DNA of 54,482 nt from Anaerolineae bacterium (GCA_027002405.1 JALWZT010000212.1:1-54482), one strand, 5' to 3'; shown: positions 14,884-46,107, numbered from the stretch's first letter. Notes: a model not told the origin generated them from the sequence alone. Program-made: numbers and translations.

Positions 14884-15301
14884 GAGGGAAGGGGTATTGG
14901 ATATTGGATACTGCTATGTAAATAGGATTCGGATCAGGATTAGGATTGAGGATCGCCAGGTCCACGTTGAGCGAGGCACCAACGGGCGTGATGCGTGAAA
15001 TGTAAAACGTGAGAGCCTTACGCATCACGCATTACGCATCACGTGCTCGGCTTCCCGCGCCAACGTGGCCGCGAGATGTTTTCATCCGTATCGGCGAGCT
15101 GCCGTTCGGGGTGACTGCTTTGTAGATAGAGTAATCAGTGATCAGTTATCAGTAATCAGTAGGAATCTGCGTTGCATCTGCGTTACATCTGCGCAGATCA
15201 GCGTTCTATTTTCATCGTTAGAGGGTGAGCTATAGTTCAGGGCGACTGGATACTGGATATTGGATACCAAATATCGAATACCCAATCCCCAATATCGCAT
15301 T
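14884..15301. repeat. modular intergenic repeat locus R1 (archetype; modules F, terminus, A, B/C, linker, D, E, F)
   Basis: F GGTATTGGATATTGGATAC 14893-14910. Terminus ctgctatgtaaatag 14911-14925. A hexamers AGGATT/CGGATC 14924-14951. B/C palindrome 14952-15078. Linker ttttcatccgtatcggcgagc...gactgctttgtagatag 15079-15129. D heptamers NATCAGT x4 15133-15160. E ATCTGCG 11-mers 15163-15206. F palindrome 15246-15297. Confidence 0.9.
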
Positions 15302-16642
15302 TTACCAGAAAGCTGGCCAAACCAGGAGAACGAGAACACTTAATCCCACACTGGCGGAAAGCGCTAGCACAGCAAGAACGCGGGGTGCAGTCCGAAGCTC
15401 ACGCGTGATGGGAAGCGCATCGAATCCGCCCGCCAAGCCCATACCAAACCACACACCGATGGCCGCGATGCTGGGCCACAACAGGCGGGCTTGGTCCGTG
15501 CCCAGGGCCAGCCGGGTGTAGTTGATAATGCCCGCCAGAGTGAGCAAAGGTGCACCTGCCAACAGGAGCAACAAGAAAACCTGGCAAGATCCCTCGCGCC
15601 ACCACCCCCGCAGGAGGTGAATAACGCCCATCAGCACGGCCAATGAGAAAACGCCCGCCAGCGCATAAGCCCAATGAGGGAGAAATATCTGGCCGATGGC
15701 GCCATAGCGTCCCCAGAAGTACGTGTACAGCCCTTTGGCCAACCATAGCAGCACTCCCAAGTCTATCGGGCCTTCCCGCACGTCTATGGTCTGGCGCACC
15801 AAGGCCCAGCCCAAAGGATCGCCATACAGTTGCCAGTTGCGCACCAGCCAGGGCGAAGCCACCAGCAGGCCCAAGCCCCAGGCCAGTGCCCCATGCCCTA
15901 CTACCTCCAACCAGGCCCGAGCCTGATCGCGGCGAGGCCAGAGATATGCGGCCAGGGGAAGCGCCAACAACGGCCACAGAGAAAAGGTCCCCACCTTGGA
16001 AAGCGCGCCCAGGCCGAAAATGACGCCCAGAGCCAAAGTGTATCGCCAGGACAGCGATTGCTGAATCATCCTCACCATGATCAAGATAGCCAGGGCCCCA
16101 AACGCGCCTGCTGCATTGTCATTGTTTATGGCCCCGCTGATGTACAAAAAGCCAGGCAGGCCCGCCAGAAACGCGGCAGCCATCAAGCCCACATCCTGAC
16201 GCTGCGGAAAGGATTCTTGCCCTATGCGCCAGGTGGCCCACAGGGTGATGCCACCCAACACCACCGAAAGAAAGCGCACCAGGTGGAAAGCCAGGGGACC
16301 TTCTCGCCAGGGGAAGGCCTCGGCATCGCCGTGGATGAAGAAATTGGCCGGGCCATCGGTGCGAATGGGGAACACATCGGGGTTGGGCTGCAGAAAGAGC
16401 CCCATGCCTGTCCATCCCCCCACCAAGGCTGCCATCCCATGATAGAGCGGAGGGTGCTTGCCCTGGGTGATCTCCGGCCCCTGGGGCAAATGCCGATGCC
16501 GGGCCAGGTAGCGGGCGTAGGCGTAGTGATCAGCCTCATCGGGCGCCTCCCCCAGGGGCACGATCACGGACACAGCCGTGGCCAGCACCAGGTAGACTGC
16601 CAGGATGATGAGAAAAAAACGGGGCTGCTTTGAAAATAGCAT
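15302..16642 (-). CDS. GT-C-fold membrane glycosyltransferase (ArnT/PMT_2-like)
   Basis: 446 aa, polytopic. The first periplasmic loop is PLGEAPDEADHYAYARYL, the acidic motif typical of ArnT/PMT-type GT-C enzymes. Its ATG and first 6 codons (MLFSKQ) lie inside the repeat terminus 16625-16642. Confidence 0.65.
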   Translation of the reverse strand: MLFSKQPRFFLIILAVYLVLATAVSVIVPLGEAPDEADHYAYARYLARHRHLPQGPEITQGKHPPLYHGMAALVGGWTGMGLFLQPNPDVFPIRTDGPANFFIHGDAEAFPWREGPLAFHLVRFLSVVLGGITLWATWRIGQESFPQRQDVGLMAAAFLAGLPGFLYISGAINNDNAAGAFGALAILIMVRMIQQSLSWRYTLALGVIFGLGALSKVGTFSLWPLLALPLAAYLWPRRDQARAWLEVVGHGALAWGLGLLVASPWLVRNWQLYGDPLGWALVRQTIDVREGPIDLGVLLWLAKGLYTYFWGRYGAIGQIFLPHWAYALAGVFSLAVLMGVIHLLRGWWREGSCQVFLLLLLAGAPLLTLAGIINYTRLALGTDQARLLWPSIAAIGVWFGMGLAGGFDALPITRELRTAPRVLAVLALSASVGLSVLVLLVWPAFW

Positions 16643-16971
16643 GATCGTCGGTTGCGGAAGGATCGCCAGGCCTACGTTGAGCGAGACGACAACGGGCGTG
16701 ATGCGTGAAAACGTGAAACGTGAGAACCTTACGCATCACGCATTACGCATTACGTGCTTGGCTTCCCGCGCCAACTTGGCCGCGAGATGTTTTCCTCGGT
16801 ATCGACGCGGGCGAGCCCGCCGTTGGACTGCTTTGAAAATAGAGGACGCAGATGAACGCTGATAGAGGCAGATTCACGCAGACAAAAAATCAAAATAAAA
16901 ATCATCTGCGCAAATCAGCGTTGCGAAGCATCTGTGCAAATCTGCGTTCCCTTTTCATCCGTATCGGTGAG
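16625..16971. repeat. modular intergenic repeat locus R2 (terminus, B/C, linker, E-type inverted array, linker)
   Basis: ctgctttgaaaatag 16625-16639. ggatcgccaggcctacgttgagcgag...cgtgaaaacgtgaaacgtgag/cttacgcatcacgcattacgcat...ccaacttggccgcgagatg. Linker 16790-16842. gcagatgaacgctgat ... atcagcgttgcgaagcatctg arrays run to 16950. The final linker runs into the stop of the next gene. Confidence 0.9.
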
Positions 16972-19830
16972 CTATCGCTCAGGGTGACTGATCACTGATG
17001 ATGTTTTTGGCAACAGGGGCAATGGAGTCAATTCCAAAGCGTCATCGAAGACAGGAAGCTCGCTGGTCACATGGAGACGTGCGCCTGTGTGGGGATCATA
17101 CATGCCCACGCGTAAGTCGTATCGACCTGGGGGAAGGTTGGAAGGAATAGAGAGGATGTGGACATCGCGAATGTATTCCTGGGGGAACCAGATGTCGGTG
17201 GGGAGTTGTCCTTGTGCGGGGATGCCGTCGTGCTGCGCGACAATGCGCCCCTCTGCATCGAGGAGATGAACAAAAACTTTGTACGAGATGTCGTCAGGGG
17301 CTTGCGCTCGCCAGAGGAGCTCGAGGGTGAGGGGCTGTCCGGGAACGCCCTTTTCGGGATGAAGCGCATACCCGGCCAACTCGGCAATGCTTCCTATCTG
17401 AGCTGAAACTGGTATGAAATCCGCAGGTGGGGACCAGAGATGTGGACGATCTTGGACGGTCAATGTTCCTATAGGGAATGGAAGAGGCGCTGGATGGTCC
17501 TCGAAAATCAAGCGAAGATCGACCAGGTAGCGGTGATCTCCCAGGGTAATGGGGGCCCGGACGTTATGCTGGGTATGAATGATAGCACCAGGCTTGAGTA
17601 ACTCAAAGGTGGAGGGGGTCATGAGCGGCTGATCTGGAGGCCGGGTGTGGCGAATGGCTTTCCCTCGGAATCGTATTCGTATGGAGGGGACACGGTGAAG
17701 GGGGCGTCGCACCTGCCAGTAGGTATCTACCCTTATGGGGTCACCCGGCCGAACTGGGCCCGGAGAAACGGCCCAGGCTTTTAGGGCCAGGGGGCCCATG
17801 CGAGGGGCAATAGGCGGAACAAAGCTCGGGGCAAGGTAGGCCCGGCGGAAGGTTGAGGTGGTCTCGACATGCACCTGGCCTAAGGGGATGGGATCGTATC
17901 TGGGAAAGCGATACAATTGGTCATCGTCCGAAAAATAGAACATGAGCAGCTCGGCTTGATAGTCGCCGGGCAGGGCTCCCAGCGGGAGCTGCAAGGGGAT
18001 AGCGGTCAAGCCTTCGGTGCCCTGAGGGATGACATCGCCAGGGTACCATTGAGAGGCCAGTAATGCATGAAATTCAATGGGGGGCTGATGCGGTTCTGGA
18101 GATGTGAGTCGGATGCCCAGGAAGGTGCGCTTGGGCAAGGCATCTTGGGCGTGCCAACAGACCGAAAGGGAAAGGGTTTCATAGGGGGGCAGGGTTCGGG
18201 GGAGTTGTCCAATCCCCAAGGCAATGGGGCCGTAAGACGCGAGGGGCAAGTCTAAGGTCTGGGAGCAGGAAAGTGTTTGTCCTTTGGGAAGCACACGCAC
18301 AAGATGTCCCCAGGGAATGAAGGCGTAATCCTCCGGCCACGAGGACATCTGGGATGGAGGAAGAGGCGCTGCTACATAAAGGGGAAGGCCGTGCTCCAGC
18401 CAGGGATCGATAACAGCTTTTGGGGCGGGAGGGAATAATCCCCACAGGTCCGTGCGCAGGTTTTGGATATGTTGCAGGTACCACAGGGGGGTGAAGTCAC
18501 TCCAGTTTCCCAATAACCCCGCCTGTTCTTCGATGGGCTGGGCCAGGATGGCTTCCCAGCCAGCGCGGATGTCGATTCGGCGACTGAAGTCCCGCTGGTC
18601 CCAGTTGGAGGTGAGTAGGATCAGGAACACGCTGAGCGCAAACACGCCTTGCAGAGCCCGTACGGTTCTTGTTTGCCTCGCTCCCGATGCAAGGCTGCTT
18701 GGGAGCAGGGGTGCGAAGGCAGCAAAGAAGGCGATAATGCCAAAGACGGGCATCAGATAGGCATCGTTTTTTCCCTGCCGGATGTAAGCGACCATGAGCG
18801 TGAGGAATAAGGCAAACCCAAAAATCAGAAGTGTAAACAAGGGCTCTCTGCGGAGAAGATAGATAAATCCTATGCCCGCCATGACCAGCAACCACCAGGG
18901 GGCATCCTGCTGGAAGAAGGGGATCAGGCCCGGCAAATTATGGACGGCCTGAATCCACCCACCCCCAAGGAATTGCCAGATATAGCCCTGCAACCCGGCG
19001 ATGTAATGGAAAATCAAAGCCCCATCACCATGGGGCACATACCAGACGTGAACCAGCCCCTTGTAGACGGCTGCGGAACGAGCAATCCCAGGCAATAGCG
19101 GCCAGGATGAAAAGGTTTTCCAGCGCCATGGCACGTAGAGATAGAACACCAGCGGAAGTCCCAAGGGGATCAGCCACCAAAGGGCGCGGCGGAGGCGTTG
19201 GTGGCCATGCGCCCCCGTGCCCGAAACCATCAGAATGAACCAAAAGGGGGCCATCAACGCGGCCGTGGGATGCAGCGTGAGGCTGATGCCCAACATGCCG
19301 CCAGCCAGGGCCAGGCGCCATCGCTTTTGGGACCATGAGGCGAAGCGTCGGGCCTCCCAGGCTGCCCACCAGGCTCCGATCATGAGGGCCAGGTTGAGCG
19401 TGTAGCGTTCGGCCACGATGCTGAATTGCCAAAAGGTGGGCATCAGGGCCAAGATCATGCCCGCAAGAAAGGCAGAGGTATGGTTGCGGGTCATGCGCCA
19501 AACCAGCGCGGCCAGGATCCCCGCGGCCAGAGCCCCAGCCAGGGCCGAGAGCAGGTTCATCTCCCATGCCGGCTCCCCCAGGGGGAGTTTTTGCCATAGC
19601 CAGCCCAACAGCATGTACGCAGGGAAGCCGTTGGGATGGGGGAGGCCCAGCAAAGAGGGGAGATATTGAAATTCAGCGAAATCCGAGACGAAAACGTCCG
19701 GGGCCAGGGTGCGCCAATAAATCAAAAAGGTGGAGCATGTTACGATCCCAGGGGTGATCCAGCCCTGGCGCCGCAATTTTTCGAAGGTCAAGGGATCGTT
19801 CATTGGGGGATGATGCTCTGCTGGACTCAA
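16972..19830 (-). CDS. DUF2723/TMEM260-like GT-C membrane glycosyltransferase with a large C-terminal repeat-domain region
   Basis: 952 aa. The N-terminus TLAPDVFVSDFAEFQYLPSLLGLPHPNGFPAYMLLGWLW is DUF2723-like. The C-terminal part carries about 3 copies of a ~100-aa module ending YKVFVHLLDAEGRIVAQHDGIPAQGQLPTDIWFPQEYIRD...LPPGRYDLRVGMYD. Confidence 0.7.
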   Translation of the reverse strand: MSPAEHHPPMNDPLTFEKLRRQGWITPGIVTCSTFLIYWRTLAPDVFVSDFAEFQYLPSLLGLPHPNGFPAYMLLGWLWQKLPLGEPAWEMNLLSALAGALAAGILAALVWRMTRNHTSAFLAGMILALMPTFWQFSIVAERYTLNLALMIGAWWAAWEARRFASWSQKRWRLALAGGMLGISLTLHPTAALMAPFWFILMVSGTGAHGHQRLRRALWWLIPLGLPLVFYLYVPWRWKTFSSWPLLPGIARSAAVYKGLVHVWYVPHGDGALIFHYIAGLQGYIWQFLGGGWIQAVHNLPGLIPFFQQDAPWWLLVMAGIGFIYLLRREPLFTLLIFGFALFLTLMVAYIRQGKNDAYLMPVFGIIAFFAAFAPLLPSSLASGARQTRTVRALQGVFALSVFLILLTSNWDQRDFSRRIDIRAGWEAILAQPIEEQAGLLGNWSDFTPLWYLQHIQNLRTDLWGLFPPAPKAVIDPWLEHGLPLYVAAPLPPSQMSSWPEDYAFIPWGHLVRVLPKGQTLSCSQTLDLPLASYGPIALGIGQLPRTLPPYETLSLSVCWHAQDALPKRTFLGIRLTSPEPHQPPIEFHALLASQWYPGDVIPQGTEGLTAIPLQLPLGALPGDYQAELLMFYFSDDDQLYRFPRYDPIPLGQVHVETTSTFRRAYLAPSFVPPIAPRMGPLALKAWAVSPGPVRPGDPIRVDTYWQVRRPLHRVPSIRIRFRGKAIRHTRPPDQPLMTPSTFELLKPGAIIHTQHNVRAPITLGDHRYLVDLRLIFEDHPAPLPFPIGTLTVQDRPHLWSPPADFIPVSAQIGSIAELAGYALHPEKGVPGQPLTLELLWRAQAPDDISYKVFVHLLDAEGRIVAQHDGIPAQGQLPTDIWFPQEYIRDVHILSIPSNLPPGRYDLRVGMYDPHTGARLHVTSELPVFDDALELTPLPLLPKTSSVISHPER

Positions 19831-19857
19831 TAGGTCACAGGCGAAGGCGCGAAGAGA

Positions 19858-19945
19858 GTCATCAGTAATCAGTCATCCGTCGGAATCAGCGTTGCGAAGC
19901 ATCTGTGTAAATCTGCGTTCCCATTTTTGTTCGCATTGGTAAGCC
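19858..19945. repeat. modular intergenic repeat locus R3 (short: D remnant, E, linker)
   Basis: gtcatcagtaatcagtcatccgtcggaatcagcgttgcgaagcatctgtgtaaatctgcgttcccatttttgttcgcattggtaagccgtt. It matches the E-plus-linker part of R2 (16915-16965). Confidence 0.8.
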
Positions 19946-19946
19946 G

Positions 19947-22199: not shown

Positions 22200-22206
22200 G
22201 CGAATG

Positions 22207-22619
22207 CTGCTTTGAAAATAGCATGATCGTCGGTTGCGGAAGGATCGCCAGGCCGACGTTGGGCGAGTCGGCAAAGGTTCGTATTGCGTATTCCGTATTC
22301 CGTCCAGTCGTTACGCAATACGCAATACGGAATACGAGTCACGCCGCCCTGGCCGCGAGGCATTTTCGTCGGTATCGGCGCGGGCGAGCCAGCCGTTGGA
22401 CTGCTATGAAAATAGGATTCGGAGCAGGATTAGGATCAGGATTAGGATCGTCAGGCCCACGTTGGGCGAGGCTGCAACGGGCGTGATGCGTGAAACGTGA
22501 AACGTGAGAATCTTACGCATTACGGCATCACGCATCACGTTTTACGGTCCGTCAGCCTGGCTGCGAGGCGTTTTCATTCGTATCGGTAAACCGCCGCTTG
22601 TGTGGCCTGCTTCGCAACC
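22207..22619. repeat. modular intergenic repeat locus R4 (two scaffold units with different cores)
   Basis: Terminus 22207-22221. Scaffold ggatcgccaggccgacgttgggcgag 22242-22267, with core cgtattgcgtattccgtattccg / cgcaatacgcaatacggaatacg (22280-22336). Linker 22363-22415. Hexamers 22414-22449. The second scaffold carries the cgtgaaacgtgaaacgtgag-type core (22450-22570). Confidence 0.9.
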
Positions 22620-23501
22620 TCACATCCACAGCCCTCCCATCACGGCCAGTAGGGTGATGATGCTGATGTACCCGTTCATGGTGAAGAAGGCGATATCCAC
22701 TTTGCTCAGATCATCGGGCTTGACCAGGCTGTGTTCGTAGATGAGCAGCCCGGCCACGATGATCAGGCCCAGCCAATAGAGCCAGCCCAGGCCCGCAACC
22801 AGCCCCACCGCGGCCAGCAGAAGCACCGTGAGCACGTGGAAGGCCTGGGCCAGGCGCAAGGCTGCGGGGATGCCGAAGCGGGCGGGGATGCTGTAGAGCC
22901 CCTCGCGACGGTCCACCTCCACATCCTGACAGGCGTAGATGAGGTCGAAGCCCGCGATCCACACGGCCACCGCGGCCCACAGCAGCCAGGGGATGGGGTG
23001 GCTCAGGCTGGCGGTCACCGCGGCCCAGGCACCGGCCGCGGCCGCGCCATCCACAATGCCCAACCAGAGGTGACAGAGCCAGGTGAAACGCTTGGTGTAG
23101 GCGTAGCCCACCAGCCCGATCATGGCAAGGGGCGCCAGCATGAGCACAAAGGTGTTCAGCATCCAGGCGGCAAATAGGAACACGCCCAGGCTGATGACCC
23201 CCGCCAGCCACACCGCGTTCTTGCTGATCTTGCCCGTCTGGATGGGGCGGCTGGCAGTGCGGGGATTGCGAGCGTCGATCTCTGCATCGATGGCTCGGTT
23301 AAAAGCCATGGCCGCGGTGCGGGCCGAAGCCATGGCCCCAGTGATCCACACGAACTGCCAGAAAAGCCTCCCCCAATCGATGGGCGTGGCCAGCATCCCG
23401 CTCTGCGCCCACGCCAGCACCATGCCGATGTACGCGAAGGGCAGCGCGAAAATCGTGTGCTCGAATTTGATCATGTCGAGGAAGACGCGCAGTTTATTCA
23501 C
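22620..23501 (-). CDS. UbiA-family aromatic prenyltransferase (possibly the futalosine-pathway MqnP-type enzyme)
   Basis: 293 aa, polytopic. It begins MNKLRVFLDMIKFEHTIFALPFAYIGMVLA and has the Asp-rich motif NRAIDAEIDARNPRTASRP. Confidence 0.85.
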   Translation of the reverse strand: MNKLRVFLDMIKFEHTIFALPFAYIGMVLAWAQSGMLATPIDWGRLFWQFVWITGAMASARTAAMAFNRAIDAEIDARNPRTASRPIQTGKISKNAVWLAGVISLGVFLFAAWMLNTFVLMLAPLAMIGLVGYAYTKRFTWLCHLWLGIVDGAAAAGAWAAVTASLSHPIPWLLWAAVAVWIAGFDLIYACQDVEVDRREGLYSIPARFGIPAALRLAQAFHVLTVLLLAAVGLVAGLGWLYWLGLIIVAGLLIYEHSLVKPDDLSKVDIAFFTMNGYISIITLLAVMGGLWM

Positions 23502-23504
23502 TGT

Positions 23505-23897
23505 TTATTCCCGCACCTCGATTTCGTTGAGCGGGCCGTTGAGAAACAGCCTGAGCTTATTCAAGACGTCTCTGCCTAGAACGATCTCTTGTCCCTGATC
23601 ATCTCCGATCACGGTGACGCCCGGCAGAGAGATTTCATTGATACGCAAATCAACGCGAAAGAGATGCACGCGCCGTCTTTCGCCCCAATGACTTCGCAAG
23701 AAGGCCTCGGCCACTGGATATGCCTGAACTGACCGGAGGTAAGAGATGGGAATCAGCGTGCCGTCGGCTCCGGTATCGACGAGGGCAACTAACGAAGATG
23801 TCCGCAGCTCCGCATCGCTATTGTATACGATAACAGGCAGTGCCGGGATTGGGGGATCGTACGTTTTATCGTAGGCAAAACGAGAGGAGGCCATCAT
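23505..23897 (-). CDS. retropepsin-like (clan AA) aspartic protease domain protein
   Basis: 130 aa with the active-site-like LVDTGADGTLIP (D-T-G-A) and a C-terminal IVLGRDVLNKLRL. It has a 4-nt ATGA overlap with the upstream small gene. Confidence 0.7.
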   Translation of the reverse strand: MMASSRFAYDKTYDPPIPALPVIVYNSDAELRTSSLVALVDTGADGTLIPISYLRSVQAYPVAEAFLRSHWGERRRVHLFRVDLRINEISLPGVTVIGDDQGQEIVLGRDVLNKLRLFLNGPLNEIEVRE

Positions 23898-24262
23898 TCG
23901 TACCGAAATCCAAGTCGGGTAAATGTGCGATGGGGTGTTTCTCTCACCCGAACGATCAACACAGGCGTGCGTCCATATCGCTCACGCACGCGTTGCCACA
24001 GAGCATCTTCATCGACATCATGATCCACCACTTTCCCCTGGTGCATAGCGATGTATCGCCCCAAATACTTCTGCTTCAATTCAGGATATTGTTGCCGAAA
24101 CAGCTCGCTTTCCTCGGATATTTTCTGACGTTCCAGCTCCCACAGGTATTGACGAGCCGCGTCTTCCAGCAATGCATCGGCGGTCGTTTCATGTTCTTCG
24201 GCCGCTTCTTTCAATCGTTTGTAGACGTTTTGATCAAGGGTGATTGTGGGCATAAGGCGCAC
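23894..24262 (-). CDS. small antitoxin-like protein (N-terminal RHH-like segment, C-terminal DUF5678-like segment)
   Basis: 122 aa. MPTITLDQNVYKRLKEAAEEHETTADALLEDAARQYL is ribbon-helix-helix-like. GRYIAMHQGKVVDHDVDEDALWQRVRERYGRTPVLIVRV resembles DUF5678. Both assignments are from recall. Confidence 0.55.
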   Translation of the reverse strand: MRLMPTITLDQNVYKRLKEAAEEHETTADALLEDAARQYLWELERQKISEESELFRQQYPELKQKYLGRYIAMHQGKVVDHDVDEDALWQRVRERYGRTPVLIVRVRETPHRTFTRLGFRYE

Positions 24263-24319
24263 CTTTGGAAACTTTGTGTTCAGAAAACGAACATGTCTAT
24301 TATACCGCTCACCGTCCTC

Positions 24320-24739
24320 TTATCCACGTTCCTCGAACCAGGCGCGGCATTGATGCAAGAGATTCTCGGCGGCGCGCAATGCCCGTTGTGCATCTTCGTC
24401 CGTGAAAATCTGCCCGGGCGTCAGGTCCGGCAGACCGTTTGGGTAGCGGGTGGGCACGTAAAATTGATCCAGGAGCCCAGCGTCTCTCATCCATCGATCC
24501 GAATCAGGAAGCTCGTCACGATAAGGGAAATCTTGCAGCAGTTTGAGAATGGAGTGTCCCCATGGATCGATATCTTCCAGATACCAGATGGCCTTGACTG
24601 CTTTTTCGCCACATTGTTCAGCATGAAAGCAGGCCGCGGCGAAGAGACCTTCCGCTGCCAGAACTCGGGCGGCTTGCAAGTCCTCGTGTGCTGTTGTCAG
24701 CCAGCGTTCAGCCTGCCAACGGTTCTTTTGCTGACTCAT
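24320..24739 (-). CDS. HEPN-domain protein (toxin of an MNT/HEPN type VII TA pair)
   Basis: 139 aa. AERWLTTAHEDLQAARVLAAEGLFAAACFHAEQCGEKAVKA ... VPTRYP is a HEPN-like helical bundle. It lies immediately downstream of the MNT gene and overlaps it. Confidence 0.8.
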   Translation of the reverse strand: MSQQKNRWQAERWLTTAHEDLQAARVLAAEGLFAAACFHAEQCGEKAVKAIWYLEDIDPWGHSILKLLQDFPYRDELPDSDRWMRDAGLLDQFYVPTRYPNGLPDLTPGQIFTDEDAQRALRAAENLLHQCRAWFEERG

Positions 24740-25061
24740 AAACGACGATTCCCTCCGCCAGGATGCGACGAATAAAGGCGCGATCTTTTATCGCTTCGAG
24801 TTCATCAGGAGTGTAAATGAGCAAATCAACGCTTCTTCCGGGAATAGCCAGGGTAATCTCTTGCAAAATCCCCTGGTAACGGTCGATAAAACGCTTGTTC
24901 GTCTCCATAATCAGCACAAGATCGACATCGCTACGCCGCGAAGCATCGCCGGTGGCCATAGAGCCAAACAAAATGGCTCGTTGAACCCGGTATTTTTGAA
25001 AAATCGGGCGCAAGAGATAAGCTGCCTCGGTCGCGAAATCCGCCATGCTCCCCTCTGTCAT
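24708..25061 (-). CDS. minimal nucleotidyltransferase (MNT), HEPN partner
   Basis: 117 aa with the pol-beta-type motif ILFGSMATGDASRRSDVDLVLI. Confidence 0.85.
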   Translation of the reverse strand: MTEGSMADFATEAAYLLRPIFQKYRVQRAILFGSMATGDASRRSDVDLVLIMETNKRFIDRYQGILQEITLAIPGRSVDLLIYTPDELEAIKDRAFIRRILAEGIVVYESAKEPLAG

Positions 25062-25282
25062 TTCGCTTGCTGGCGCAAGGCTCGAATATCATCATCAGTC
25101 ACATCGAACAACTGTTTATCTTGCCACAAACCTTCCAATTGCACATTCACTGGATTTTCCGGGGCGTGTTGTCTGAATCTAAGGAACTCAAGAAACCTGG
25201 AGAGTTCTTCCAGGCTTTCAGGCGGTAAGGCGTCGATGGCCTCGTGGGCTTTTTTTCGTGTGAAGTGACTTGAGTAGCTCAT
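25058..25282 (-). CDS. small acidic protein translationally coupled to the MNT gene (third component, antitoxin-like)
   Basis: 74 aa, AIDALPPESLEELSRFLEFLRFRQ. It has a 4-nt ATGA overlap with the MNT start (25058-25061). Confidence 0.55.
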   Translation of the reverse strand: MSYSSHFTRKKAHEAIDALPPESLEELSRFLEFLRFRQHAPENPVNVQLEGLWQDKQLFDVTDDDIRALRQQAK

Positions 25283-25392
25283 GTCTTTATTCTCATACAG
25301 ATGGCATCTGGGATCATTTTAGCACTGGCGACGGGGGCTGACAAAGGTGAAAACCAAATCAATCAGTAACTATACAGCTCCTTCTGCAAGAC

Positions 25393-25533
25393 GTTTTTAC
25401 CACGAAGGCACAAAGTCACAAAGATATTCTAAATTTTGTCAAGAGGTAATTTGAGGCGAGGATTCGCCGACAAAGACACGAAGAAATTTTTTATTTTTCC
25501 CTTTGTGCCTTAGTGTCCTTAGTGGTTTTTGCC
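25393..25533. repeat. H-type long imperfect palindrome (copy H2)
   Basis: gtttttaccacgaaggcacaaagtcacaaag (25393-25423) ... gacaaagacacgaagaaa ... ctttgtgccttagtgtccttagtggtttttgcc (25501-25533). The arms are CACGAAG/CACAAAG-type units. Confidence 0.75.
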
Positions 25534-25603: not shown

Positions 25604-26749
25604 TCAGGGGATGGTCAGACCGACATCTGCTTCGACCTGATGGCCGGGCTGCACGACAACGGTTTGTGGTTCGGGCGCAGCATAGGTCTGGTCCCTGGTG
25701 GGGAGGATGGTTATCCTGTATTCGCCCGGAGGCACATCAATGAACGCATACCATCCATTCTGGTCGGTGACCACGGTCAAAAGCGCCTTGCCCTCGGCAT
25801 TTTGGAGCGCCACCCGTATCCCCGGGATGGGGGTTTCGTGGGCCTGAGGCTGGCCATCCTGGTTGGTATCCTGCCACACCAGGCCGAAAATGAGTCCCCG
25901 TTGGGCCGTGGGCGTGGGCCAGGAGGAGGCCGGAGGGAAGAGGGCGCGCGGTTCGGCAGAGGAAGGTGTTCCTGTCGATTCGGGGGTGAGGCCGGGCGTT
26001 GGGGAAGGGGTAGCCTCTGGAGTCGTCGTGGGGGGCTGATTCAAATGGCTGAGGACTTGAGCCAGGTCTTGGACAAAACGATGGAGAAAGTCCGCATCTT
26101 GCTGGAAGTTGTTAACTGCGTCTCGCGTTTCTTGAAGCTGGGTTTCCAAATCGTGCAGGGTGGTTTCCAGCTCATCCTGGCGGGCTTGGAGTTCTTGCAC
26201 GTCCTCCTGGGTTTGCGTCAGGGTTTCTTTTTGGTCTGCAAGGCGGCTGTTGATGGCTTCTTGGGCTTTTTGTTGCTGCGCCATCTCCTGCGCGAGGGTA
26301 TCCAATTGGTTTTGAAGGGTCTCCACACGGGCATTGAGCTCCTTCACCGCTTGGTTCTGATGTTCCGCTTGCTCCATTAGTTTTTGGATTTGTTCCTCCA
26401 CGCGCTCTTGGGCCAGGGCAAGCTGGATGGTTTTATCCCGATCATTGAGGAGCAACGTGCCATTCAGGGCAAAGAGCAGGAGGAACACGAACACGGTAGC
26501 CAATACCATGCTGAGCAACACAATGAGTACATCGCGCAAACAGCCCCAGGGTGTCCACAGCGGCCCTGGCGTCGGAGGCTGAAGCGGAGGCGGACCTGCT
26601 TCCTCTTCAGGTTTATCGGAGGATGGCTCGGGCGCTTCGGGATGGATTTCCTCCGGAGAGAGCGGGGCGAAGGTCGTGTTCACCGGTCCGACCGTTACTT
26701 CTACATCCTCGGTTGGGGATGAGGTGGGTGGGGTTGTTTTTTCGTCCAT
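25604..26749 (-). CDS. membrane-anchored coiled-coil protein with a C-terminal SdrD-B/Cna-B-like beta-sandwich domain
   Basis: 381 aa. It has a Pro-rich N-terminus, one TM (VLIVLLSMVLATVFVFLLLFAL), about 150 aa of Q/E-rich heptad coiled coil, a Pro/Thr linker, then GLVWQDTNQDGQPQAHETPIPGIRVALQNAEGKALLTVVTDQNGWYAFIDVPPGEYRI. Confidence 0.7.
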   Translation of the reverse strand: MDEKTTPPTSSPTEDVEVTVGPVNTTFAPLSPEEIHPEAPEPSSDKPEEEAGPPPLQPPTPGPLWTPWGCLRDVLIVLLSMVLATVFVFLLLFALNGTLLLNDRDKTIQLALAQERVEEQIQKLMEQAEHQNQAVKELNARVETLQNQLDTLAQEMAQQQKAQEAINSRLADQKETLTQTQEDVQELQARQDELETTLHDLETQLQETRDAVNNFQQDADFLHRFVQDLAQVLSHLNQPPTTTPEATPSPTPGLTPESTGTPSSAEPRALFPPASSWPTPTAQRGLIFGLVWQDTNQDGQPQAHETPIPGIRVALQNAEGKALLTVVTDQNGWYAFIDVPPGEYRITILPTRDQTYAAPEPQTVVVQPGHQVEADVGLTIP

Positions 26750-26753
26750 GGGA

Positions 26754-27035
26754 CTGCTTTGTAAATAGAGTAATCAGTGATCAGTTATCAGTAATCAGTA
26801 GAGCCTCGCGACGTCATTCCGAGGGAGCGAAGCGACCGAGGCATGTCCTGAGCGCAGCCGAAGGAAATCTAGCGAAGCGCAAGAACCACCGCATGGCGCT
26901 CGCTTCGTTCGCTAGATGCTTCGCTCCCTCCGGTCGCTCAGCATGACGAATATCTGCGAAAATCTGCACTGCGAAGCATCTGCGAAAATCTGCGTCCTCA
27001 TTTTCATCGGTATCAGCGAGCCATGGATCGTGGCG
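26754..27035. repeat. modular intergenic repeat locus R5 (terminus, D, third core type, E, linker)
   Basis: ctgctttgtaaatag 26754-26768. NATCAGT x4 26772-26799. The core palindrome is gtcattccgagggagcgaagcgaccgagg ... tctagcgaagcg/cgcttcgttcgctaga ... gcttcgctccctccggtcgctcagcatgac (26811-26947). ATCTGCG arrays 26952-26996. Linker ttttcatcggtatcagcgagc follows. Confidence 0.85.
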
Positions 27036-27040
27036 CCCGC

Positions 27041-27481
27041 TCAGATTTCGCGCTCATCCTCTTCATCCATAAGAAAGAAGATGCCCGCAAAGAAAATGAT
27101 GAGAAAGGCGGTGAGGGCCATGAAAGGAATGGTGATGAACCCTGCCAGGTTCACCCAGGTGGTGGTACAGGGGATGCCTGTGTCGCAGACCGCGCTGTGG
27201 GAAAAGAGAGGGGTTTTCTGGAGCAGATAATGGTAACTGGATACCAGTGTTCCCAGGATGGTGAAGGGCAAGACATAATGGAAAACACCCTGGTCTCTAC
27301 GTAGCAGCCCGATAAGCAGGATGAGCGCGAGGGGATACATGAGTATCCGTTGGTACCAGCACAGGCTACACGGGATAAAATGGAGTCCTTCGCTTAAATA
27401 AAGACTGCCCAGGGTGGCTGCCCAGGCTGCTGCCAGGGCGATCAGGATGGCGATGGTGCGGTGTGTGGAGAAACGGTGAAT
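27041..27481 (-). CDS. DsbB/BdbC-family disulfide bond formation protein; probable non-canonical ATT (or ATC) start
   Basis: The ATG ORF (27041..27340) starts at ...MYPLALILL. The in-frame upstream sequence reads IHRFSTHRTIAILIALAAAWAATLGSLYLSEGLHFIPCSLCWYQRIL, with no ATG, GTG or TTG back to the in-frame TGA. That stretch carries TM1 and the CxxC, and aligns with the Bacillus BdbC N-terminus as I recall it. AGGAGG (27488-27493) lies 6 nt upstream of ATT (27479-27481). Confidence 0.6.
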   Translation of the reverse strand: MHRFSTHRTIAILIALAAAWAATLGSLYLSEGLHFIPCSLCWYQRILMYPLALILLIGLLRRDQGVFHYVLPFTILGTLVSSYHYLLQKTPLFSHSAVCDTGIPCTTTWVNLAGFITIPFMALTAFLIIFFAGIFFLMDEEDEREI

Positions 27482-27491: not shown

Positions 27492-27715
27492 CTGCTTTGT
27501 AAATAGGATTCGGATCAGGATTAGGATCGGGATTAGGATTCGGATTGAAGATCGTCAGGACTACGTTGGGCTGGAGAGCAACGGGCGTGATGCGTGAAAC
27601 GTGAAACGTGAGAACCTTACGCATCACGCATTACGCATCCCGGGCTCGGCTTCCCGCGCCAGCCTGGCCGCGAGGTGTTTTCCTCTGTATCGACGAACAG
27701 GCGTTCGTGGCAAAA
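27492..27715. repeat. modular intergenic repeat locus R6 (terminus, A, B/C, linker)
   Basis: ctgctttgtaaatag 27492-27506. Hexamers 27505-27547. Then gatcgtcaggactacgttgggctggagagcaacgggcgtgatgcgtgaaacgtgaaacgtgagaaccttacgcatcacgcattacgcat...ccagcctggccgcgaggtgttttcctctgtatcgacg. Confidence 0.9.
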
Positions 27716-28921: not shown

Positions 28922-29695
28922 ATGGCCCTTTCCTCGCTACCTCGTCTGGTGGGTTTGAGAACCTATGTGGACGATCTCGAGGTCGTTCATGCGTTTTGGC
29001 GACGCCATTTCCTTCTGGATTTTCAGGAAAAAGGGGATGTTTTACAAGCCCGCTTGGGGGATGTGGTTTGGGAGCAGATTGCGGGGGGGCGATTTTGTGG
29101 AGTGCGTGGGCCTCATGGTGCACTCCCTGCGTTGGCAATTGATGATTTCGGCCATGCGCGCGGGCATCTTATCGCTGCCGGGATCCCCATCGTGTTCGAA
29201 GAAATGGTGCCCGGGCTGAATCTCCTCATTTTTCTGGACCCTGCCCACAATCCTTTTGAATTGGCCCAGGAAACCGACCCTGATCAATGGGATATCCGTC
29301 AGCGTAAAGCTCTACGCACTCGAAGGCGTCAGGACGCGGCCAGGCCCGACCCTATCCCCTTGCATGGCGTGGCCGAACTGACCATTTACACCCACGAGGT
29401 CACCGCCAGCGTGCATTTTTATCGAGACCTCTTGGGCCTGCCGGTAGGGCTTTCTTATTTCGCTCACGTCCATTTGGCTGCGGAGAATGTGGCTGTGGTC
29501 CTGCGTACCACCCGTTGGCGCTGCAAGGCGCCCGCGCAGCGCCATGGCACCCTACCCATCTTCGCCTTGCCAGACCTTCCATCGGTCCTAAAACGCCTCC
29601 GCGAAGCGGGATTTCCCCCTCAGCGGGCCCAGCAAGGCTGGGAGGTGAGGGATCCGGCCGGGGTGCTTATCGGCTTAAGGGAGGATCAGGATTAG
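28922..29695 (+). CDS. two-domain VOC (glyoxalase/bleomycin-resistance/dioxygenase) family protein
   Basis: 257 aa with two beta-alpha-beta-beta-beta-like halves (LRTYVDDLEVVHAFWRRHFLLDF; ELTIYTHEVTASVHFYRDLLGLPV). The last codons and the stop lie in the hexamer module (gaggatcaggattag). Confidence 0.6.
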   Translation: MALSSLPRLVGLRTYVDDLEVVHAFWRRHFLLDFQEKGDVLQARLGDVVWEQIAGGRFCGVRGPHGALPALAIDDFGHARGHLIAAGIPIVFEEMVPGLNLLIFLDPAHNPFELAQETDPDQWDIRQRKALRTRRRQDAARPDPIPLHGVAELTIYTHEVTASVHFYRDLLGLPVGLSYFAHVHLAAENVAVVLRTTRWRCKAPAQRHGTLPIFALPDLPSVLKRLREAGFPPQRAQQGWEVRDPAGVLIGLREDQD

Positions 29696-29866
29696 GGGTA
29701 GGATTTAGGGCATGATGCATTTTCGACTCCAGGAAACTTGACAAATGCTGCCAGGTCTTTCGTAGCAAGATAGTCGATATTGGGTATTTGATATTGGGTA
29801 TTCAAATCATCCCAGAACAGGGAAAAATATCCAATATCCAGTATCCATGCCTCTAATTTGTCAAGC
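29681..29866. repeat. modular intergenic repeat locus R7 (A hexamers plus an F-type TGGATAT palindrome bounded by a perfect 10-nt IR)
   Basis: aggatcaggattaggggtaggatttaggg 29681-29710. IR cttgacaaat (29737-29746) pairs with atttgtcaag (29856-29865). It encloses gatattgggtatttgatattgggtattc ... atatccaatatccagtatcc. Confidence 0.8.
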
Positions 29867-32356: not shown

Positions 32357-32525
32357 CTGCTATGTAAATAGGATTCGGATCAGGATTAGGATTGAGGTCG
32401 TCAGGCCGACGTTGAGCGAGGCGACAACGGGCGTGATGCGTGAAACATGAAACGTGAGAACCTCACGCATCACGCATTACGCATTACGTTTCGCGGCTCA
32501 CCAACCTGGCTGCGAGGCGTTGTTA
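32357..32525. repeat. modular intergenic repeat locus R8 (terminus, A, B/C)
   Basis: ctgctatgtaaatag 32357-32371 starts 1 nt after the maf stop. Hexamers 32370-32398. Then gtcgtcaggccgacgttgagcgaggcgacaacgggcgtgatgcgtgaaacatgaaacgtgagaacctcacgcatcacgcattacgcattacg...ccaacctggctgcgaggcg. Confidence 0.9.
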
Positions 32526-32572: not shown

Positions 32573-32601
32573 TTGTCAAATGGTGTTTTTTCTGCTACAA
32601 T
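32573..32601 (+). promoter_or_regulatory. candidate strong sigma-70-type promoter (extended -10)
   Basis: TTGTCA (32573-32578), a 17-nt spacer, then TGC-TACAAT (TACAAT 32596-32601). An A/T-rich UP-like tract lies upstream (gaaaatttgaaaaaaattcatcttttttccaaaaagg). Confidence 0.45.
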
Positions 32602-33608: not shown

Positions 33609-33812
33609 AGTTTCACGTGAAACGGGCGCCGCGCACGGCAGCTCGCCGATGCCGAGGAAAAGGGAACGCAGATTTGCGCAGGTGCGACGCAGATTTCCAC
33701 TGATTACTGATCGCTGATCACTGATTACTCGTGCTTGCGCCAAACCTCGACCTGACAATCCTCAATCCTAATCCTAATCCTAATCCTAATCCTGATCCTA
33801 TTTACGGAAAAG
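33609..33812. repeat. modular intergenic repeat locus R9 (inverted orientation: linker, E, D, A, terminus)
   Basis: gtttcacgtgaaac palindrome. gctcgccgatgccgaggaaaagg. gaacgcagatttgcgcaggtgcgacgcagatttcc. ACTGATN x4 33699-33729. CCTAAT-type hexamers 33757-33797. ctatttacggaaaag 33798-33812. Confidence 0.85.
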
Positions 33813-33898: not shown

Positions 33899-34045
33899 GG
33901 CAAAAACCACGAGGGCACGACAACACGAAAGCACGAAGAGAAAAGTGGCAGATGAAAAACGCCGTCGCTAGAAGGACTTGCCGCTTGCGACTTGCAAACC
34001 TGTATTGTCTTCGTTTCTTCGAGCCTTCGTGGCAGAACGTTTTGT
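33899..34045. repeat. H-type long imperfect palindrome (copy H3) in the rpoD upstream region
   Basis: ggcaaaaaccacgagggcacgacaacacgaaagcacgaagagaaaag ... gtcttcgtttcttcgagccttcgtggcagaacgttttg. Confidence 0.7.
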
Positions 34046-35816: not shown

Positions 35817-36020
35817 GGAGTAGGAGCAGGATTAGGATTGGGATTGGGTGGGGGATGGACGGACGCGTCATCGCTGCCAAGGGCTGGCTCCACGGCAAAA
35901 AGGTTTTTCAACACGGAGACACGGAGGGCACAGAGAAGTTCATAGGTGGCAAGTTGCAGGTGACTGGTGAAGAGAACGCAGATTCCCACTGATTACTGAT
36001 CACTGATAACTGATTACTTT
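35817..36020. repeat. modular intergenic repeat locus R10 (A, half G element, E remnant, D inverted)
   Basis: ggagtaggagcaggattaggattgggattggg. aaaaggtttttcaacacggagacacggagggcacagagaag is the left arm of the G element only. gaacgcagattccc. ACTGATN x4 35988-36017. Confidence 0.8.
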
Positions 36021-38688: not shown

Positions 38689-38836
38689 GTCCTGAAAAAA
38701 CCTTAACCACGGAGACACAGAGAGCACGGAGAAGGTAAAAGATTAAGGTTTGGAGAGAATTTTCTCCGTGAACCCCCTTATTTTTTCTCTGTGTCCTCCG
38801 TGTCTCCGTGTTGAAAAACCTTTTTGCAGTGCATCC
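38689..38836. repeat. G-type long-hairpin element, copy G2 (inverted relative to G1)
   Basis: The reverse complement reads ggatgcactgcaaaaaggtttttcaacacggagacacggaggacacagagaaaaaataagg...ccgtggttaaggttttttcaggac. By eye this is almost identical to 8229-8373. It lies just downstream of the DUF59 gene on the minus strand. Confidence 0.85.
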
Positions 38837-38873
38837 AAGAATAGTTGCTGATTTTTACGAGAGCCAAGTAATC

Positions 38874-39277: not shown

Positions 39278-39307
39278 TTGGAATGCAATCAAGAGTATGG
39301 GTATAAT
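39278..39307 (+). promoter_or_regulatory. candidate promoter for the E1 dehydrogenase gene
   Basis: TTGGAA (39278-39283), an 18-nt spacer, then TATAAT (39302-39307). It lies about 45 nt upstream of the start at 39353. This is a by-eye match only. Confidence 0.35.
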
Positions 39308-39352
39308 GTACTCTCCACTGTTCCATACATCGCGTACTCATAGGACACGGTT

Positions 39353-41425: not shown

Positions 41426-41457
41426 ATTATTCTAAACGCGAAAGAGAAGCCGGGGGA

Positions 41458-42492: not shown

Positions 42493-42504
42493 GGGAAAAC
42501 CTCC

Positions 42505-45500: not shown

Positions 45501-45741
45501 CGGGCGGCACCTGGTCCCGAATGGCCTTTTCGACCTCGGGCTTGAGTTGATAGAGCCCCTCTTCGGCGGGTTCCAGGCTTTCTTGCATTTCGGCCAGCCA
45601 GCCAGGATGTGCGATATCCCCGGTGCCCACAATGTGGATGCCTTTGCGGCGGGCCCAGATGGCCAGGTGGGGGATATCCAACGTTTTGCTGGTGGCCCGG
45701 GAAAAGTGGGAATGAATGTGGAGGTCGGCGATGAGTTTCAT
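42505..45741 (-). CDS. EndoQ-like PHP-domain nuclease fused to a UvrD/PcrA-type SF1 helicase
   Basis: Starting at ATG 45741 gives MKLIADLHIHSHFSRATSKTLD (PHP/EndoQ-type) with the zinc finger GICPVCGKPVTVGVMHRVE. A Pro/Ala linker follows. Helicase motifs are AGPGAGKTRTL (I), VDEYQDVN (II), MNYRS, TLHAAKGLEFPVVFIVG and FYVGMTRAQRKL (VI). Confidence 0.8.
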   Translation of the reverse strand: MKLIADLHIHSHFSRATSKTLDIPHLAIWARRKGIHIVGTGDIAHPGWLAEMQESLEPAEEGLYQLKPEVEKAIRDQVPPACQDHPVRFLLAGEISNIYKRGGKVRKIHNVIFAPDFETVARIQAELEKIGNIRSDGRPILGLDSRDLLEIILEISPRNHLIPAHIWTPWFALLGSKSGFDSVEEAFADLTPHIFALETGLSSDPPMNWRVSSLDRYALISSSDAHSPAKLAREATLFDIELGYDPLFDALRTHDPNRYLGTLEFFPEEGKYHYDGHRKCGVVWDPQTTLAHQGICPVCGKPVTVGVMHRVESLADRPAGEPKPNAAPYYSLIPLPEILSEIQGVGPHSKRVKREYDRILGVLGPELQILFDLPLEDIARVGGARLAEGIDRMRRRDIIAQPGYDGEYGVIRVFPPEEQAHEQAALFETPSQAAPEPTLFDILEPEPVVQQAPTPVPAMTVAPTPAPTPSPSPAAPSLLAGLNPAQREAVLTVDRPLIIVAGPGAGKTRTLTTRIAYLILHRHVPPESILAITFTNKAAEEMRERLQALVGDAIASRITIRTFHALGAQILREHGDANLAILDETSREQLVRSIFLSPGKRDLRRFLNHLSRAKQHLLTPDSPGLAELFPNDPDFPIRYQAYQDALARDHLLDFDDLIFRTVRLLETRPDILNQLQARYRWISVDEYQDVNLGQYRLLRLLADGGANVCVIGDPDQAIYGFRGADYRFFLHFQDDFPNARKIALQMNYRSAASILEAAQQVIAKNPDREALRLIAHFAEQVKIDIHEAPTDKAEAEYVVQQIESMMGGVSYFSLDSGRVEDETRESELSFGDFAVLYRLNAQSSVLVEAFQRLGIPYQTVGQRPFTARPTVRLLLAGLHLILNPSSQLHRQQLKQVPLEIETWHHHVGDVPVVQLLDRLTQVLPLEKEEDASKLRRLARPFGSDLQGFLAHMALQTETDIYDPRADRVALMTLHAAKGLEFPVVFIVGCEEGLLPWYGGREEVDVEEERRLFYVGMTRAQRKLILTHARKRFLLGREMTNSRSHFVDDIESALLEAKRMQAIKKKRKPKDTPEQLSLF

Positions 45742-45870
45742 AGTTTGGGATTGTAGCCGTATCTGCGGGCCAGAGCAAATATCCGGGTTTGCATGAGCCC
45801 CGGGCAATGAGGTGTGGAGAGACCTTTTTCTCGCAAGCTCGAAAAGCGTGTATAATCCATGGGGAACGTC

Positions 45871-46107
45871 TCTGCTTTCAAAACAGTCTTCACGAACGGC
45901 AGTTCGCCGATACGAATGAAAACGTCTCGCGGCCAGGCTGGCGCGGGAAGCCGAGTTCGTGATGCGTAATACGTAATGCGTAATGAGCTCACGTTTTACG
46001 TTTCACGCATCACGCCCGTTGGTGCCTCGCCCAACGTGGGCCTGGCGATCTTAATCCTAATCCTAATCCTAATCCTAATCCTGATCCGAATCCTATTTTC
46101 AAAACAG
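45871..46107. repeat. modular intergenic repeat locus R11 (inverted orientation: linker, B/C, A, terminus)
   Basis: ctgctttcaaaacag...gttcgccgatacgaatgaaaac...ctcgcggccaggctggcgcgggaagccgag...gatgcgtaatacgtaatgcgtaatgagctcacgttttacgtttcacgcatcacgcccgttg...cccaacgtgggcctggcgatc. CCTAAT hexamers 46051-46093. ctattttcaaaacag 46093-46107. Confidence 0.9.

Follow-up and report, generated by a model that had tools for sequence, protein, structure and literature searches.

Several families of small intergenic repeats have been described in bacteria. Repetitive extragenic palindromes (REPs) are GC-rich palindromes of 20-40 nt with a GTAG or CGTC tag, which alternate in bacterial interspersed mosaic elements (BIMEs) and are tied to RAYT transposases. 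The BOX elements of Streptococcus pneumoniae are built as boxA-boxB(n)-boxC and are probably mobile, and we know of no transposase for them. MITEs, or miniature inverted-repeat transposable elements, have terminal inverted repeats matching a parent insertion sequence (IS) together with a target-site duplication of fixed length, and the short tandemly repeated repetitive (STRR) sequences of heterocystous cyanobacteria are intergenic direct repeats of heptamers. Here we analyzed eleven intergenic loci (R1 to R11) on a contig that was assembled from a metagenome and belongs to an uncultured bacterium of the Anaerolineae (Chloroflexota) (GCA_027002405.1, JALWZT010000212.1:1-54482); the whole of this stretch of 54,482 nt is called the window. 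The loci represent a real and abundant family of small non-autonomous dispersed repeats that is restricted to one lineage, is apparently undescribed and has an unusual architecture.

The original prediction, made from the sequence alone, had compared these loci with STRR sequences. The analogy was apt, and a still closer counterpart was found for their module D, a TNACTGA heptamer that has been described under the name of TAACTGA repeats (PMC4679880). These are known from Beggiatoaceae, cyanobacteria and Bacteroidetes and were not reported in Chloroflexi; their sets lack constant ends on either side, and only a single set was noted as inverted (PMC4679880). Module D is (ATCAGTN)4, the opposite strand of which reads TNACTGA (ACTGATT, ACTGATA, ACTGATC), and it agrees with the definition of TAACTGA repeats as tandem intergenic direct repeats of a heptamer. 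In the literature, of which our coverage was incomplete, we found no description of the present family in Chloroflexi or Anaerolineae, but only general work on REPs and tandem repeats and the TAACTGA paper.

Results

The window encodes ordinary housekeeping genes, such as those for MqnE, MqnP, Maf, RpoD, GlgP and a UvrD-type helicase. All eleven loci proposed between these genes were present, far above chance, and reading each of them confirmed the modules. The tandem arrays of 6-, 7- and 11-nt units were recovered by Tandem Repeats Finder where they had been placed: hexamers at 14923-14953, 22414-22449, 27504-27546, 33757-33800 and 46048-46095, ATCAGTN heptamers at 15130-15161 and 26769-26800, 11-mers at 15165-15193, and TGGATAT-type heptamers at 15245-15294 and 29776-29847. 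The linker word TTTTCNTCNGTATCG occurred 9 times (0.05 expected) and the terminus word CTGCTWTGNAAATAG 10 times (0.01 expected), every occurrence falling within the R loci. The three linker coordinates (15079-15129, 16790-16842 and 22363-22415) were correct, and the inversion of R9 and R11 was evident on reading these loci. Some details of the prediction required correction. The loci sum to 2,772 nt, or ~5.1% of the window instead of ~6%; the hexamer arrays are real and have 4-8 copies, not 4-7; and R3, R7, R8 and R10 are partial or different elements, without one or both of the constant ends described below.

Unit architecture

The loci are head-to-tail arrays of discrete units of ~100-210 nt that share one grammar, and we named them T-K units. 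Their anatomy was derived from aligned copies of the window and of other loci (numbered with the prefix L). At the 5' end of each unit is a T-box of 15 nt, CTG[CT]T..G[AT]AAATAG, which may be followed by AGGATT-type hexamers or by one of two fixed linkers. The middle is a variable core, usually an imperfect hairpin with arms of tandem 6-11-nt units, and at the 3' end a K-box of 16 nt (TTTTCATCGGTATCGG) precedes a GC hairpin of 5 bp, which is followed by a tail of 6 nt and by CT(G). Conservation was absent from the 15 nt preceding the first T-box, which makes CTG the left border. Among 106 junctions, the spacing from a K-box to the next T-box was 20 nt in 62 and 22 nt in 40, corresponding to two subtypes of the short hairpin. 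The conserved linker that was supposed to join modules is really the place where the 3' end of a unit meets the 5' end of its neighbor. Neither the reported absence of fixed ends nor a freely varying order of modules could be upheld, as the T-box at one end and the K-box, short hairpin and CT(G) at the other are constant, and the loci resolve into such units, repeated head to tail with 20 or 22 nt between K-box and T-box. The apparent shuffling arose because different unit types concatenate, insertions nest (R1) and arrays face either way, while within one array of one to four units the orientation was uniform.

The short hairpin is either CGAGC-TATC-GCTCG or GCGGGC..GCCCGC, with flanks of GTATCGG and GTCGCC/GTCGGA, and lies about 6-9 nt from the 3' end of the unit. 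It is structurally selected: its pair 23-32 was AT in 27, CG in 18 and GC in 5 sequences and was paired in 53 of 58 compared with 28 expected after shuffling, a compensatory covariation, and the second subtype shows a change from GC to TA. The covariation check suggested in the original prediction was thus positive for the short hairpin and uninformative for the long hairpins of the H-type units, for which RNAalifold, applied to 33 of them, predicted 16 pairs with compensatory change in one alone, because the copies are too similar and their arm lengths vary. The sole complementarity between the two ends of a unit is the subterminal 7-nt TTTTCAT/ATGAAAA. Its pairing was predicted in the minimum free energy fold of R2, yet a search for covariation found none, and we rejected a K-box/T-box pairing as unsupported.

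Such ends may recall derivatives of single-strand (HUH/Y1) transposons, like the palindrome-associated elements derived from IS200/IS605 or the REP/RAYT system. A subterminal 3' hairpin would then be recognized, and insertion would occur beside CTG with neither terminal inverted repeats nor a true duplication. The absence of terminal inverted repeats is consistent with this, as are the structurally conserved hairpin near the 3' end, the same short word at the left flank and the right end, and the unequal folding of the two strands. However, the palindrome-associated elements carry like hairpins subterminally at their two ends and insert 3' of a conserved word of four or five nucleotides; here the conserved hairpin is found at the 3' end only, the 5' end having no matching one and its left flank being unconserved beyond CTG. 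There was no GTAG or CGTC tag apparent beside the hairpin in our listing of K-boxes and hairpins, and among the few open reading frames (ORFs) screened, out of ~0.7 Mb of loci, we noticed none that resembled tnpA or RAYT. Neighboring arrays had the same orientation in 17 and opposite orientations in 14 cases, whereas replication-strand-biased insertion, which we rejected as unsupported, would be expected to give a shared orientation. On balance, a single-strand transposon origin seems quite improbable to us.

Inside the constant ends the cargo is diverse. The 137 distinct units fell into at least nine core clusters, all within the same ends, and their length from T-box to K-box was 90-443 nt, mostly 100-200. 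The core types include heptamer hairpins of CGTGAAA / TNACGCA, CGTATTC / GAATACG and AGACCGG, an ATCTGCG 11-mer hairpin, a CACGGAT hairpin, a GCGCAAAG octamer hairpin, a run of ATCAGTN heptamers and a AGCGAAGCGACCGA-type palindrome. The design of a palindrome made of tandem units, as originally noticed, is real and general: 100 of 129 cores folded with z < -2, and the median z against shuffled sequence was -3.6. For example, R2 unit 1 as RNA gave -83.7 kcal/mol on the plus strand (z -3.0) and -73 on the minus strand. Heptamers of the CGTGATG/CGTGAAA kind were also observed without T-box or K-box, as plain tandem arrays in L016 (a metagenome-assembled genome (MAG) of Chloroflexaceae, 1-60) and L032 (a Chloroflexi MAG, ~1140-1180); in L034 (~12190-12240), a related contig of Anaerolineae, they form a short hairpin. 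Heptamer words of this kind are distributed more widely than framed units.

Gain, loss and nesting between relatives

Both presence/absence and unit-number polymorphism, for which a comparison of relatives had been proposed, were found. R9 is in the window and is missing at the orthologous site of the sibling L033 (RpoD 96% identical, flanking genes ~87% identical in nucleotides) and of L034 and L036, two outgroups. In L033 the site without the element is GGTTT-CTG-TTTCACGTGAAAC (GGTTT-CTG-TTTCAC), and the filled site is GGTTT-CTT-[unit]-GGCGCC-CG-TTTCAC, with precise boundaries. One CTG stands directly before the conserved TTTCACGTGAAAC in all three relatives, where the intact CTGTTTCACGTGAAAC is also kept. 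A side observation concerns the perfect 14-nt palindrome GTTTCACGTGAAAC located just past the methyltransferase stop codon (window 33609-33623), right beside which R9 was inserted. It is conserved in four species with otherwise unalignable spacers (L033 ~3126-3140, L034 ~7755-7770, L036 ~9805-9820) and may be a binding site for a protein.

In R1, an array of two units is nested in the hairpin that had been named module F. Deletion of 14911-15245 with one CTG kept gives TATTGGA TATTGGA TACTGGA TACTGGA TATTGGA in phase, and joining 14884-14910 to 15246-15301 restores a hairpin of -27.7 kcal/mol, the left arm of which is now split; the nesting is concluded from this restoration of phase and hairpin. 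Other events were seen among closer relatives. Strains L011 and L090, 99.4% identical, differ by one unit of 225 nt, the empty allele being ACCA-CTG. Between strains with 99.5% identity, the number of hexamers in R9 differs by one. The spacers holding R1 and R2 are 418 and 347 nt in the window and 49 and 36 nt in the sibling species, and the spacer between the Maf and methyltransferase genes has one plus-strand unit in the window (R8) and three inverted units in the sibling.

It might be argued that the loci arose by local slippage and palindrome formation, with no movement between loci, or that they are assembly artifacts of low-complexity sequence. In fact, hexamer and octamer copy numbers vary between strains, and contigs often break at the elements, as L040 does by beginning at the T-box of R8. 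Such an origin is nonetheless extremely improbable. More than 100 unrelated loci were found to carry near-identical multi-part units with identical ends, R1 and R5 have in common a heptamer block of 32 nt in which the variant units follow the same order, and the nested insertion of R1 restores the phase exactly. In addition, independent assemblies from different samples carry the elements at 99.5-100% identity by alignment (L001 and L040-L043, comprising European Nucleotide Archive samples and two NCBI MAGs of the same population), which argues against the artifact that the original prediction had allowed for.

Abundance and host range

The words are enriched outside the window too. In a set of species-representative genomes, the palindrome 19-mer was found at at least 30 loci; among the matches listed, 26 were in one MAG (JALXCB01) and the others in another Anaerolineae MAG and two other Chloroflexi MAGs. 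The pattern of K-box followed by T-box, that is, linker followed by terminus, matched 71 stretches among 241 million metagenome records, all from one project (Ga0256831-35), the population of which is that of the JALXCB01 MAG (99.4-99.95% identity). Between the window and the first 30 loci there was no synteny. The pattern had no match in viral contigs, the two-unit locus R2 had none in plasmids and phages, and no T-box or K-box was present in the ~20 kb each of L034 and L036, whose RpoD is ~90% identical. Carriers of units comprise GCA_027032035.1 and GCA_027013725.1 (MAGs of the window), GCA_054037575.1, JALXCB01 and DRQW01, and GCA_054045925.1 and GCA_054017395.1 were counted as relatives lacking them. 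A search of Rfam, also proposed originally, returned 0 matches at the gathering threshold and, at E <= 1, chance-level matches to microRNA hairpins alone. These sequence matches show a family that is abundant yet restricted to a narrow Anaerolineae lineage. The window contains about one array per 6 kb, from which we extrapolated, without counting, very roughly hundreds of arrays per genome.

Position relative to genes

The four classes of orientation relative to flanking genes comprised 17, 17, 17 and 11 cases (12, 10, 7 and 7 in an earlier, smaller sample). This random orientation indicates that the elements act at the DNA level. Two candidate roles were rejected. A promoter in the T-box, with TATTTT as its -10 element, is contradicted by gene starts and stops being faced about equally and by a consensus scan that puts no promoter in the T-box. 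The long hairpin with TTTTC as a general terminator is contradicted by the lack of orientation bias and by the same scan, which lists no terminator-like site there.

The insertions leave traces on the ends of genes. In 25 cases a gene stop faced the T-box; the ORF ended at the TGA of the T-box in 7 of them (offset -9) and at an offset of 0 to +3 in 5 more. The frame that starts at CTG is the sole one of the three T-box frames with a stop codon, and an excess of this frame among surviving insertions fits selection against long C-terminal extensions. Continuation of the truncated ORFs in frame into the right flank was at chance level. We also noticed about 20 long ORFs in other loci that stop inside a T-box, usually at its TGA. 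At the other end of genes, a start codon lies within ~8-15 nt of the T-box in about an eighth to a fifth of the arrays, some of which have a flank that makes up CAGGAG together with the T-box's CAG.

The latter observations bear on the possibility that the elements, on the model of REP/BIME, BOX or TAACTGA repeats, serve the host in a cis-regulatory or structural capacity and were spread by recombination and not by dedicated transposition. Candidate roles would be hairpins that stabilize or terminate mRNA, translational enhancers, and arrays for protein binding in untranslated regions. The T-box is often against a start codon and forms the CAGGAG ribosome-binding sequence together with the flank. 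Forward TNACTGA heptamers lie just upstream of ATG at R5 and L090, which matches the pattern in Beggiatoaceae (PMC4679880), forward placement directly before start codons being typical of most TAACTGA sets; R1 has them before a start codon too, R10 does not, and the overall orientation of units is random. The long hairpin is followed by TTTTC on the plus strand, this strand folds better than the minus strand, and the AGGATT hexamers provide a GGA motif every 6 nt. However, the orientation classes mean that a role of the sense-strand RNA could apply to a subset at most. Within the units, the consensus scan gave a single promoter-like match, located in R1 at its degenerate K-box. The methyltransferase gene's native promoter is situated outside R8 and conserved in the sibling, sibling species do without elements at equivalent operon spacers, and elements were swapped between strains 99.5% identical. 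Overall, we consider a host-serving origin unlikely. The promoter just mentioned is a strong sigma-70-like one, TTGTCA-17-TACAAT with an upstream TG (32573-32601), just downstream of R8 and conserved in L033, so that native promoters lie outside the elements.

Individual loci

Coordinates are those of the window, and units are on the plus strand unless stated otherwise. R1 begins with the left part of the left arm of its outer element, the TATTGGA/TACTGGA heptamer hairpin split by the insertion (14884-14910), of which the remaining left arm, loop and right arm follow at 15246-15301. Between them, unit 1 (14911-15114; T-box 14911-14925, K-box 15079-15094) is of the H-type, with AGGATT hexamers, a long hairpin with CGTGAAA / TNACGCA heptamer arms and the short hairpin. 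Unit 2 (15115-15248) is of the D/E-type, with a T-box at 15115-15129, four ATCAGTN heptamers at 15130-15161, ATCTGCG 11-mers at 15165-15193, a degenerate K-box at 15209-15224, the short hairpin and a terminal CTG at 15246-15248. In R2, unit 1 (16625-16827; T-box 16625-16639, K-box 16790-16805) is an H-type unit with the linker CATGATCGTCGGTTGCGGAA, and unit 2 (16828-16990; T-box 16828-16842, K-box 16952-16967) has a hairpin core of ATCTGCG-type 11-mers, the short hairpin and a terminal CTG at 16988-16990. This unit overlaps the stop-codon end of a minus-strand gene (16972-19830), whose last codons are in the tail of the 3' hairpin. R3 (19858-19945) is a partial D/E-type unit with heptamers, 11-mers and a decayed K-box and without a T-box, and its site in the sibling species has a different D-type element.

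R4 consists of unit 1 (22207-22400; T-box 22207-22221, K-box 22363-22378), which has the linker of R2 and a hairpin of different heptamers (CGTATTC / GAATACG), a variant also present in L044, and of unit 2 (22401-22609; T-box 22401-22415, K-box 22571-22586), an H-type unit with hexamers and a terminal CTG at 22607-22609. Between R4 and R5 (23500-25300), the gene calls on L001 show small ORFs of the kinds usual in toxin-antitoxin modules, among them a nucleotidyltransferase/HEPN pair. R5 (26754-27042) is a D/E-type unit with its T-box at 26754-26768, 4 nt from the ATG of the gene 25604-26749, heptamers at 26769-26800, 11-mers and a K-box at 27001-27016. Its core is interrupted at ~26805-26946 by an unrelated palindromic element of ~140 nt (GTCATTCCGAGGGAGCGAAGCGACCGAGG type), and a similar palindrome is the cargo of T-K units in the JALXCB01/Ga0256832 population (L046, L075). 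R6 (27492-27715) is a solo H-type unit with its T-box at 27492-27506, seven hexamers and a K-box at 27678-27693. R7 (29681-29866), a hexamer remnant with an F-type heptamer hairpin (GATATTGGGTATTT / AATATCC), has neither T-box nor K-box; it is a related design and not a T-K unit.

R8 (32357-32525) is an H-type unit with a decayed K-box, its T-box (32357-32371) standing 2 nt past the stop codon of the Maf gene. R9 (33623-33812, minus strand; T-box 33798-33812, K-box 33646-33661) is one inverted unit with hexamers, heptamers and 11-mers. R10 (35817-36020) is a composite remnant without T-box or K-box, made of hexamers, ACACGGAG octamers and inverted ACTGATN heptamers. R11 (45871-46107, minus strand; T-box 46093-46107, K-box 45907-45922) is an inverted H-type unit with eight hexamers and a T-like remnant at 45872-45886; its T-box is 11 nt from the ATG at 46119 and forms CAGGAG with the flank.

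A second design was observed in the window, namely hairpins with arms of tandem octamers (ACACGGAG, CACGAAGG or CACAAAGG) and without T-box or K-box, at 38690-38872, 33900-34035, 25401-25524, 8253-8278 and 35900-35930. Words of the AAAAACCTT type border two of them (the R10 copy and the one at 38690-38872), and just after R9 there is AAACCTTTTTG as well. At 38.7 kb, strains 99.5-99.7% identical to the window differ from it in both the octamer hairpin and the spacer. An octamer array of the CGACCGCA type, placed between T-box and start codon, is found immediately upstream of ATG in L019 (~1170-1210) and L081 (~4265-4370); the stretch is ~50 nt, or roughly six octamers, longer in L081 than in L019, the two assemblies being ~99.6-99.8% identical.

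Discussion

We consider it probable that the loci represent arrays of small mobile units, non-coding and non-autonomous, for which CTG is the insertion site. The units have defined ends with a selected end hairpin, they are gained and lost with precise borders, one array is nested in another hairpin, their repeats slip, and they follow no strand logic. Whole units or arrays go in at CTG, with CTG at both borders, and new units are often found head to tail with one already resident, a single CTG serving both, which yields the apparent linker. Units can also land within other repeat hairpins, and the short repeats inside them change their copy number by slippage. A trans-acting enzyme encoded elsewhere in the genome may recognize the contiguous junction of K-box, hairpin, CTG and T-box, and strand exchange at CTG could be conservative via a circular intermediate or follow a single-strand mechanism. 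An enzyme of this kind would account for head-to-tail arrays sharing CTG, for the single CTG at empty sites and for a weak T-box likeness past terminal units. The hairpin cargo probably evolves by slippage and by template switching from arm to arm. The elements would most simply be selfish, with the supply of stop codons and the direct contact with ribosome-binding sites as side effects.

Several observations weigh against insertion of mobile units at CTG. The CTG rule rests on three informative sites only, and both copies of CTG at R9 are mutated (CTT and CCG). At these sites, CTG at both borders and a single CTG in the empty state would look alike for a 3-bp duplication and for a shared crossover core. 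An exact CTG was present at 34 of 71 terminal K-box ends and absent from the other 37, several of which have CTA, CTC, CTT or CCG. The sequence past the terminal CTG is weakly T-box-like (p = 4e-5), which fits both a target preference and decayed neighboring units. The T-box beside the indel of L011 and L090 also differs between the two strains, and it is possible that the event was a deletion or a gene conversion between T-boxes instead of an insertion. In 89 of 129 units (p = 5e-9) the better fold is that of the strand running from T-box to K-box, which has 556 G-U pairs compared with 407 on the complement. This asymmetry is not independent evidence because the units share ancestry, but it could hint at a single-stranded functional form or intermediate that mobility at CTG does not explain. 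No transposase or recombinase was linked to the units in the few ORFs screened from the ~0.7 Mb of sampled sequence. In the same DNA, no transposase-type ORF was framed by T-box and K-box, two long intervals being ordinary genes, and no recurrent multicopy protein was found near the arrays. Finally, the elements may have a function for the host.

A more specific form of the mobile-unit explanation is that the units are gene-less cassettes moved by dedicated site-specific recombination on a folded junction of K-box, hairpin, CTG and T-box, in a way similar to integrons or bridge recombinases, while their cargo was diversified by slippage and arm-to-arm template switching. We hold this to be rather doubtful, and there is a minority chance that T-K units mark a new mobilization system. 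If it were true, they would be bacterial mobile elements of a new class, conserved and selected in nothing but a recombination site of ~55 nt.

If the units are mobile as we propose, an uncultured lineage of filamentous Chloroflexota would carry, by extrapolation, very roughly hundreds of tiny mobile units, and these would point to an enzyme acting at a CTG core. In practice, the units break metagenome assemblies, the TGA of the T-box extends or terminates ORFs, and units adjoin ribosome-binding sites. Operon spacers of 36-49 nt become structured inserts of 350-420 nt, which matters for the annotation of these genomes and for models of their gene expression.

Comparison with known systems

By behavior, the nearest systems are REP/BIME, BOX and MITEs; by content, STRR sequences and TAACTGA repeats; and by the logic of the arrays, the integron cassette with its attC site. 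The original view that the loci are neither REP/BIME nor a classical MITE was borne out, since both definitions failed on the features examined. Like REPs and BIMEs, the elements are high-copy extragenic hairpin mosaics with a small set of linker motifs and vary between strains. However, T-K units have 100-210 nt, non-palindromic constant ends and tandem-repeat arms, and the units of an array do not alternate as in BIMEs but share one orientation. With BOX they share a modular, non-coding structure with a variable number of modules and fixed outer modules around a repeated inner one. There is no sequence similarity, and BOX has one type of inner module, whereas the cargo of T-K units falls into at least nine unrelated clusters that have the hairpin-of-tandem-units design in common.

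MITEs, including Correia elements (CREE) and Nezha, are likewise small, non-autonomous, abundant, intergenic, polymorphic in presence and able to fold into long hairpins. In T-K units, however, the left end CTGCTATGAAAATAG and the right end ...GGCCGCCTG, with the reverse complement CAGGCGGCCCGAGC, do not form terminal inverted repeats, and no parent IS with T-K ends was found in the DNA sampled. Nor do the arrays resemble CRISPR, which form long series of identical repeats of 28-37 nt with unique spacers and are accompanied by cas genes, as they have 1-4 units and their would-be spacers come from recurrent families; no cas genes were present among the ORFs of the window and the genes of sibling contigs whose families were looked up.

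The likeness to integron attC sites lies in the head-to-tail units and in a structured imperfect palindrome that is split by the crossover and conserved in structure while its sequence varies, so that a unit has the final part of the site at its beginning and the initial part at its end. In contrast to integron cassettes, T-K units are gene-less and form short arrays (1-4 units) dispersed between housekeeping genes in both orientations. Their junction words are TTTTCAT ... CTG-CTATGAAAATAG and not the attC core RYYYAAC...GTTRRRY with its crossover at G|TT, and the arrays are not beside intI/attI, no integrase having been identified.

STRR and TAACTGA repeats share with the present family tandem intergenic heptamers, some of them in forward orientation just upstream of start codons, and hosts that are all filamentous. 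Those repeats are described as free arrays of direct repeats, whereas here the heptamers are one type of cargo within framed units. If our reading is correct, T-K units would add a distinct architecture, with non-inverted fixed ends, a selected end hairpin and freely evolving cargo, to the list of REP/BIME, BOX, Correia and STRR elements, and the intergenic heptamers of other filamentous bacteria would be tied to a framed mobile context in which their origin and spread become testable.

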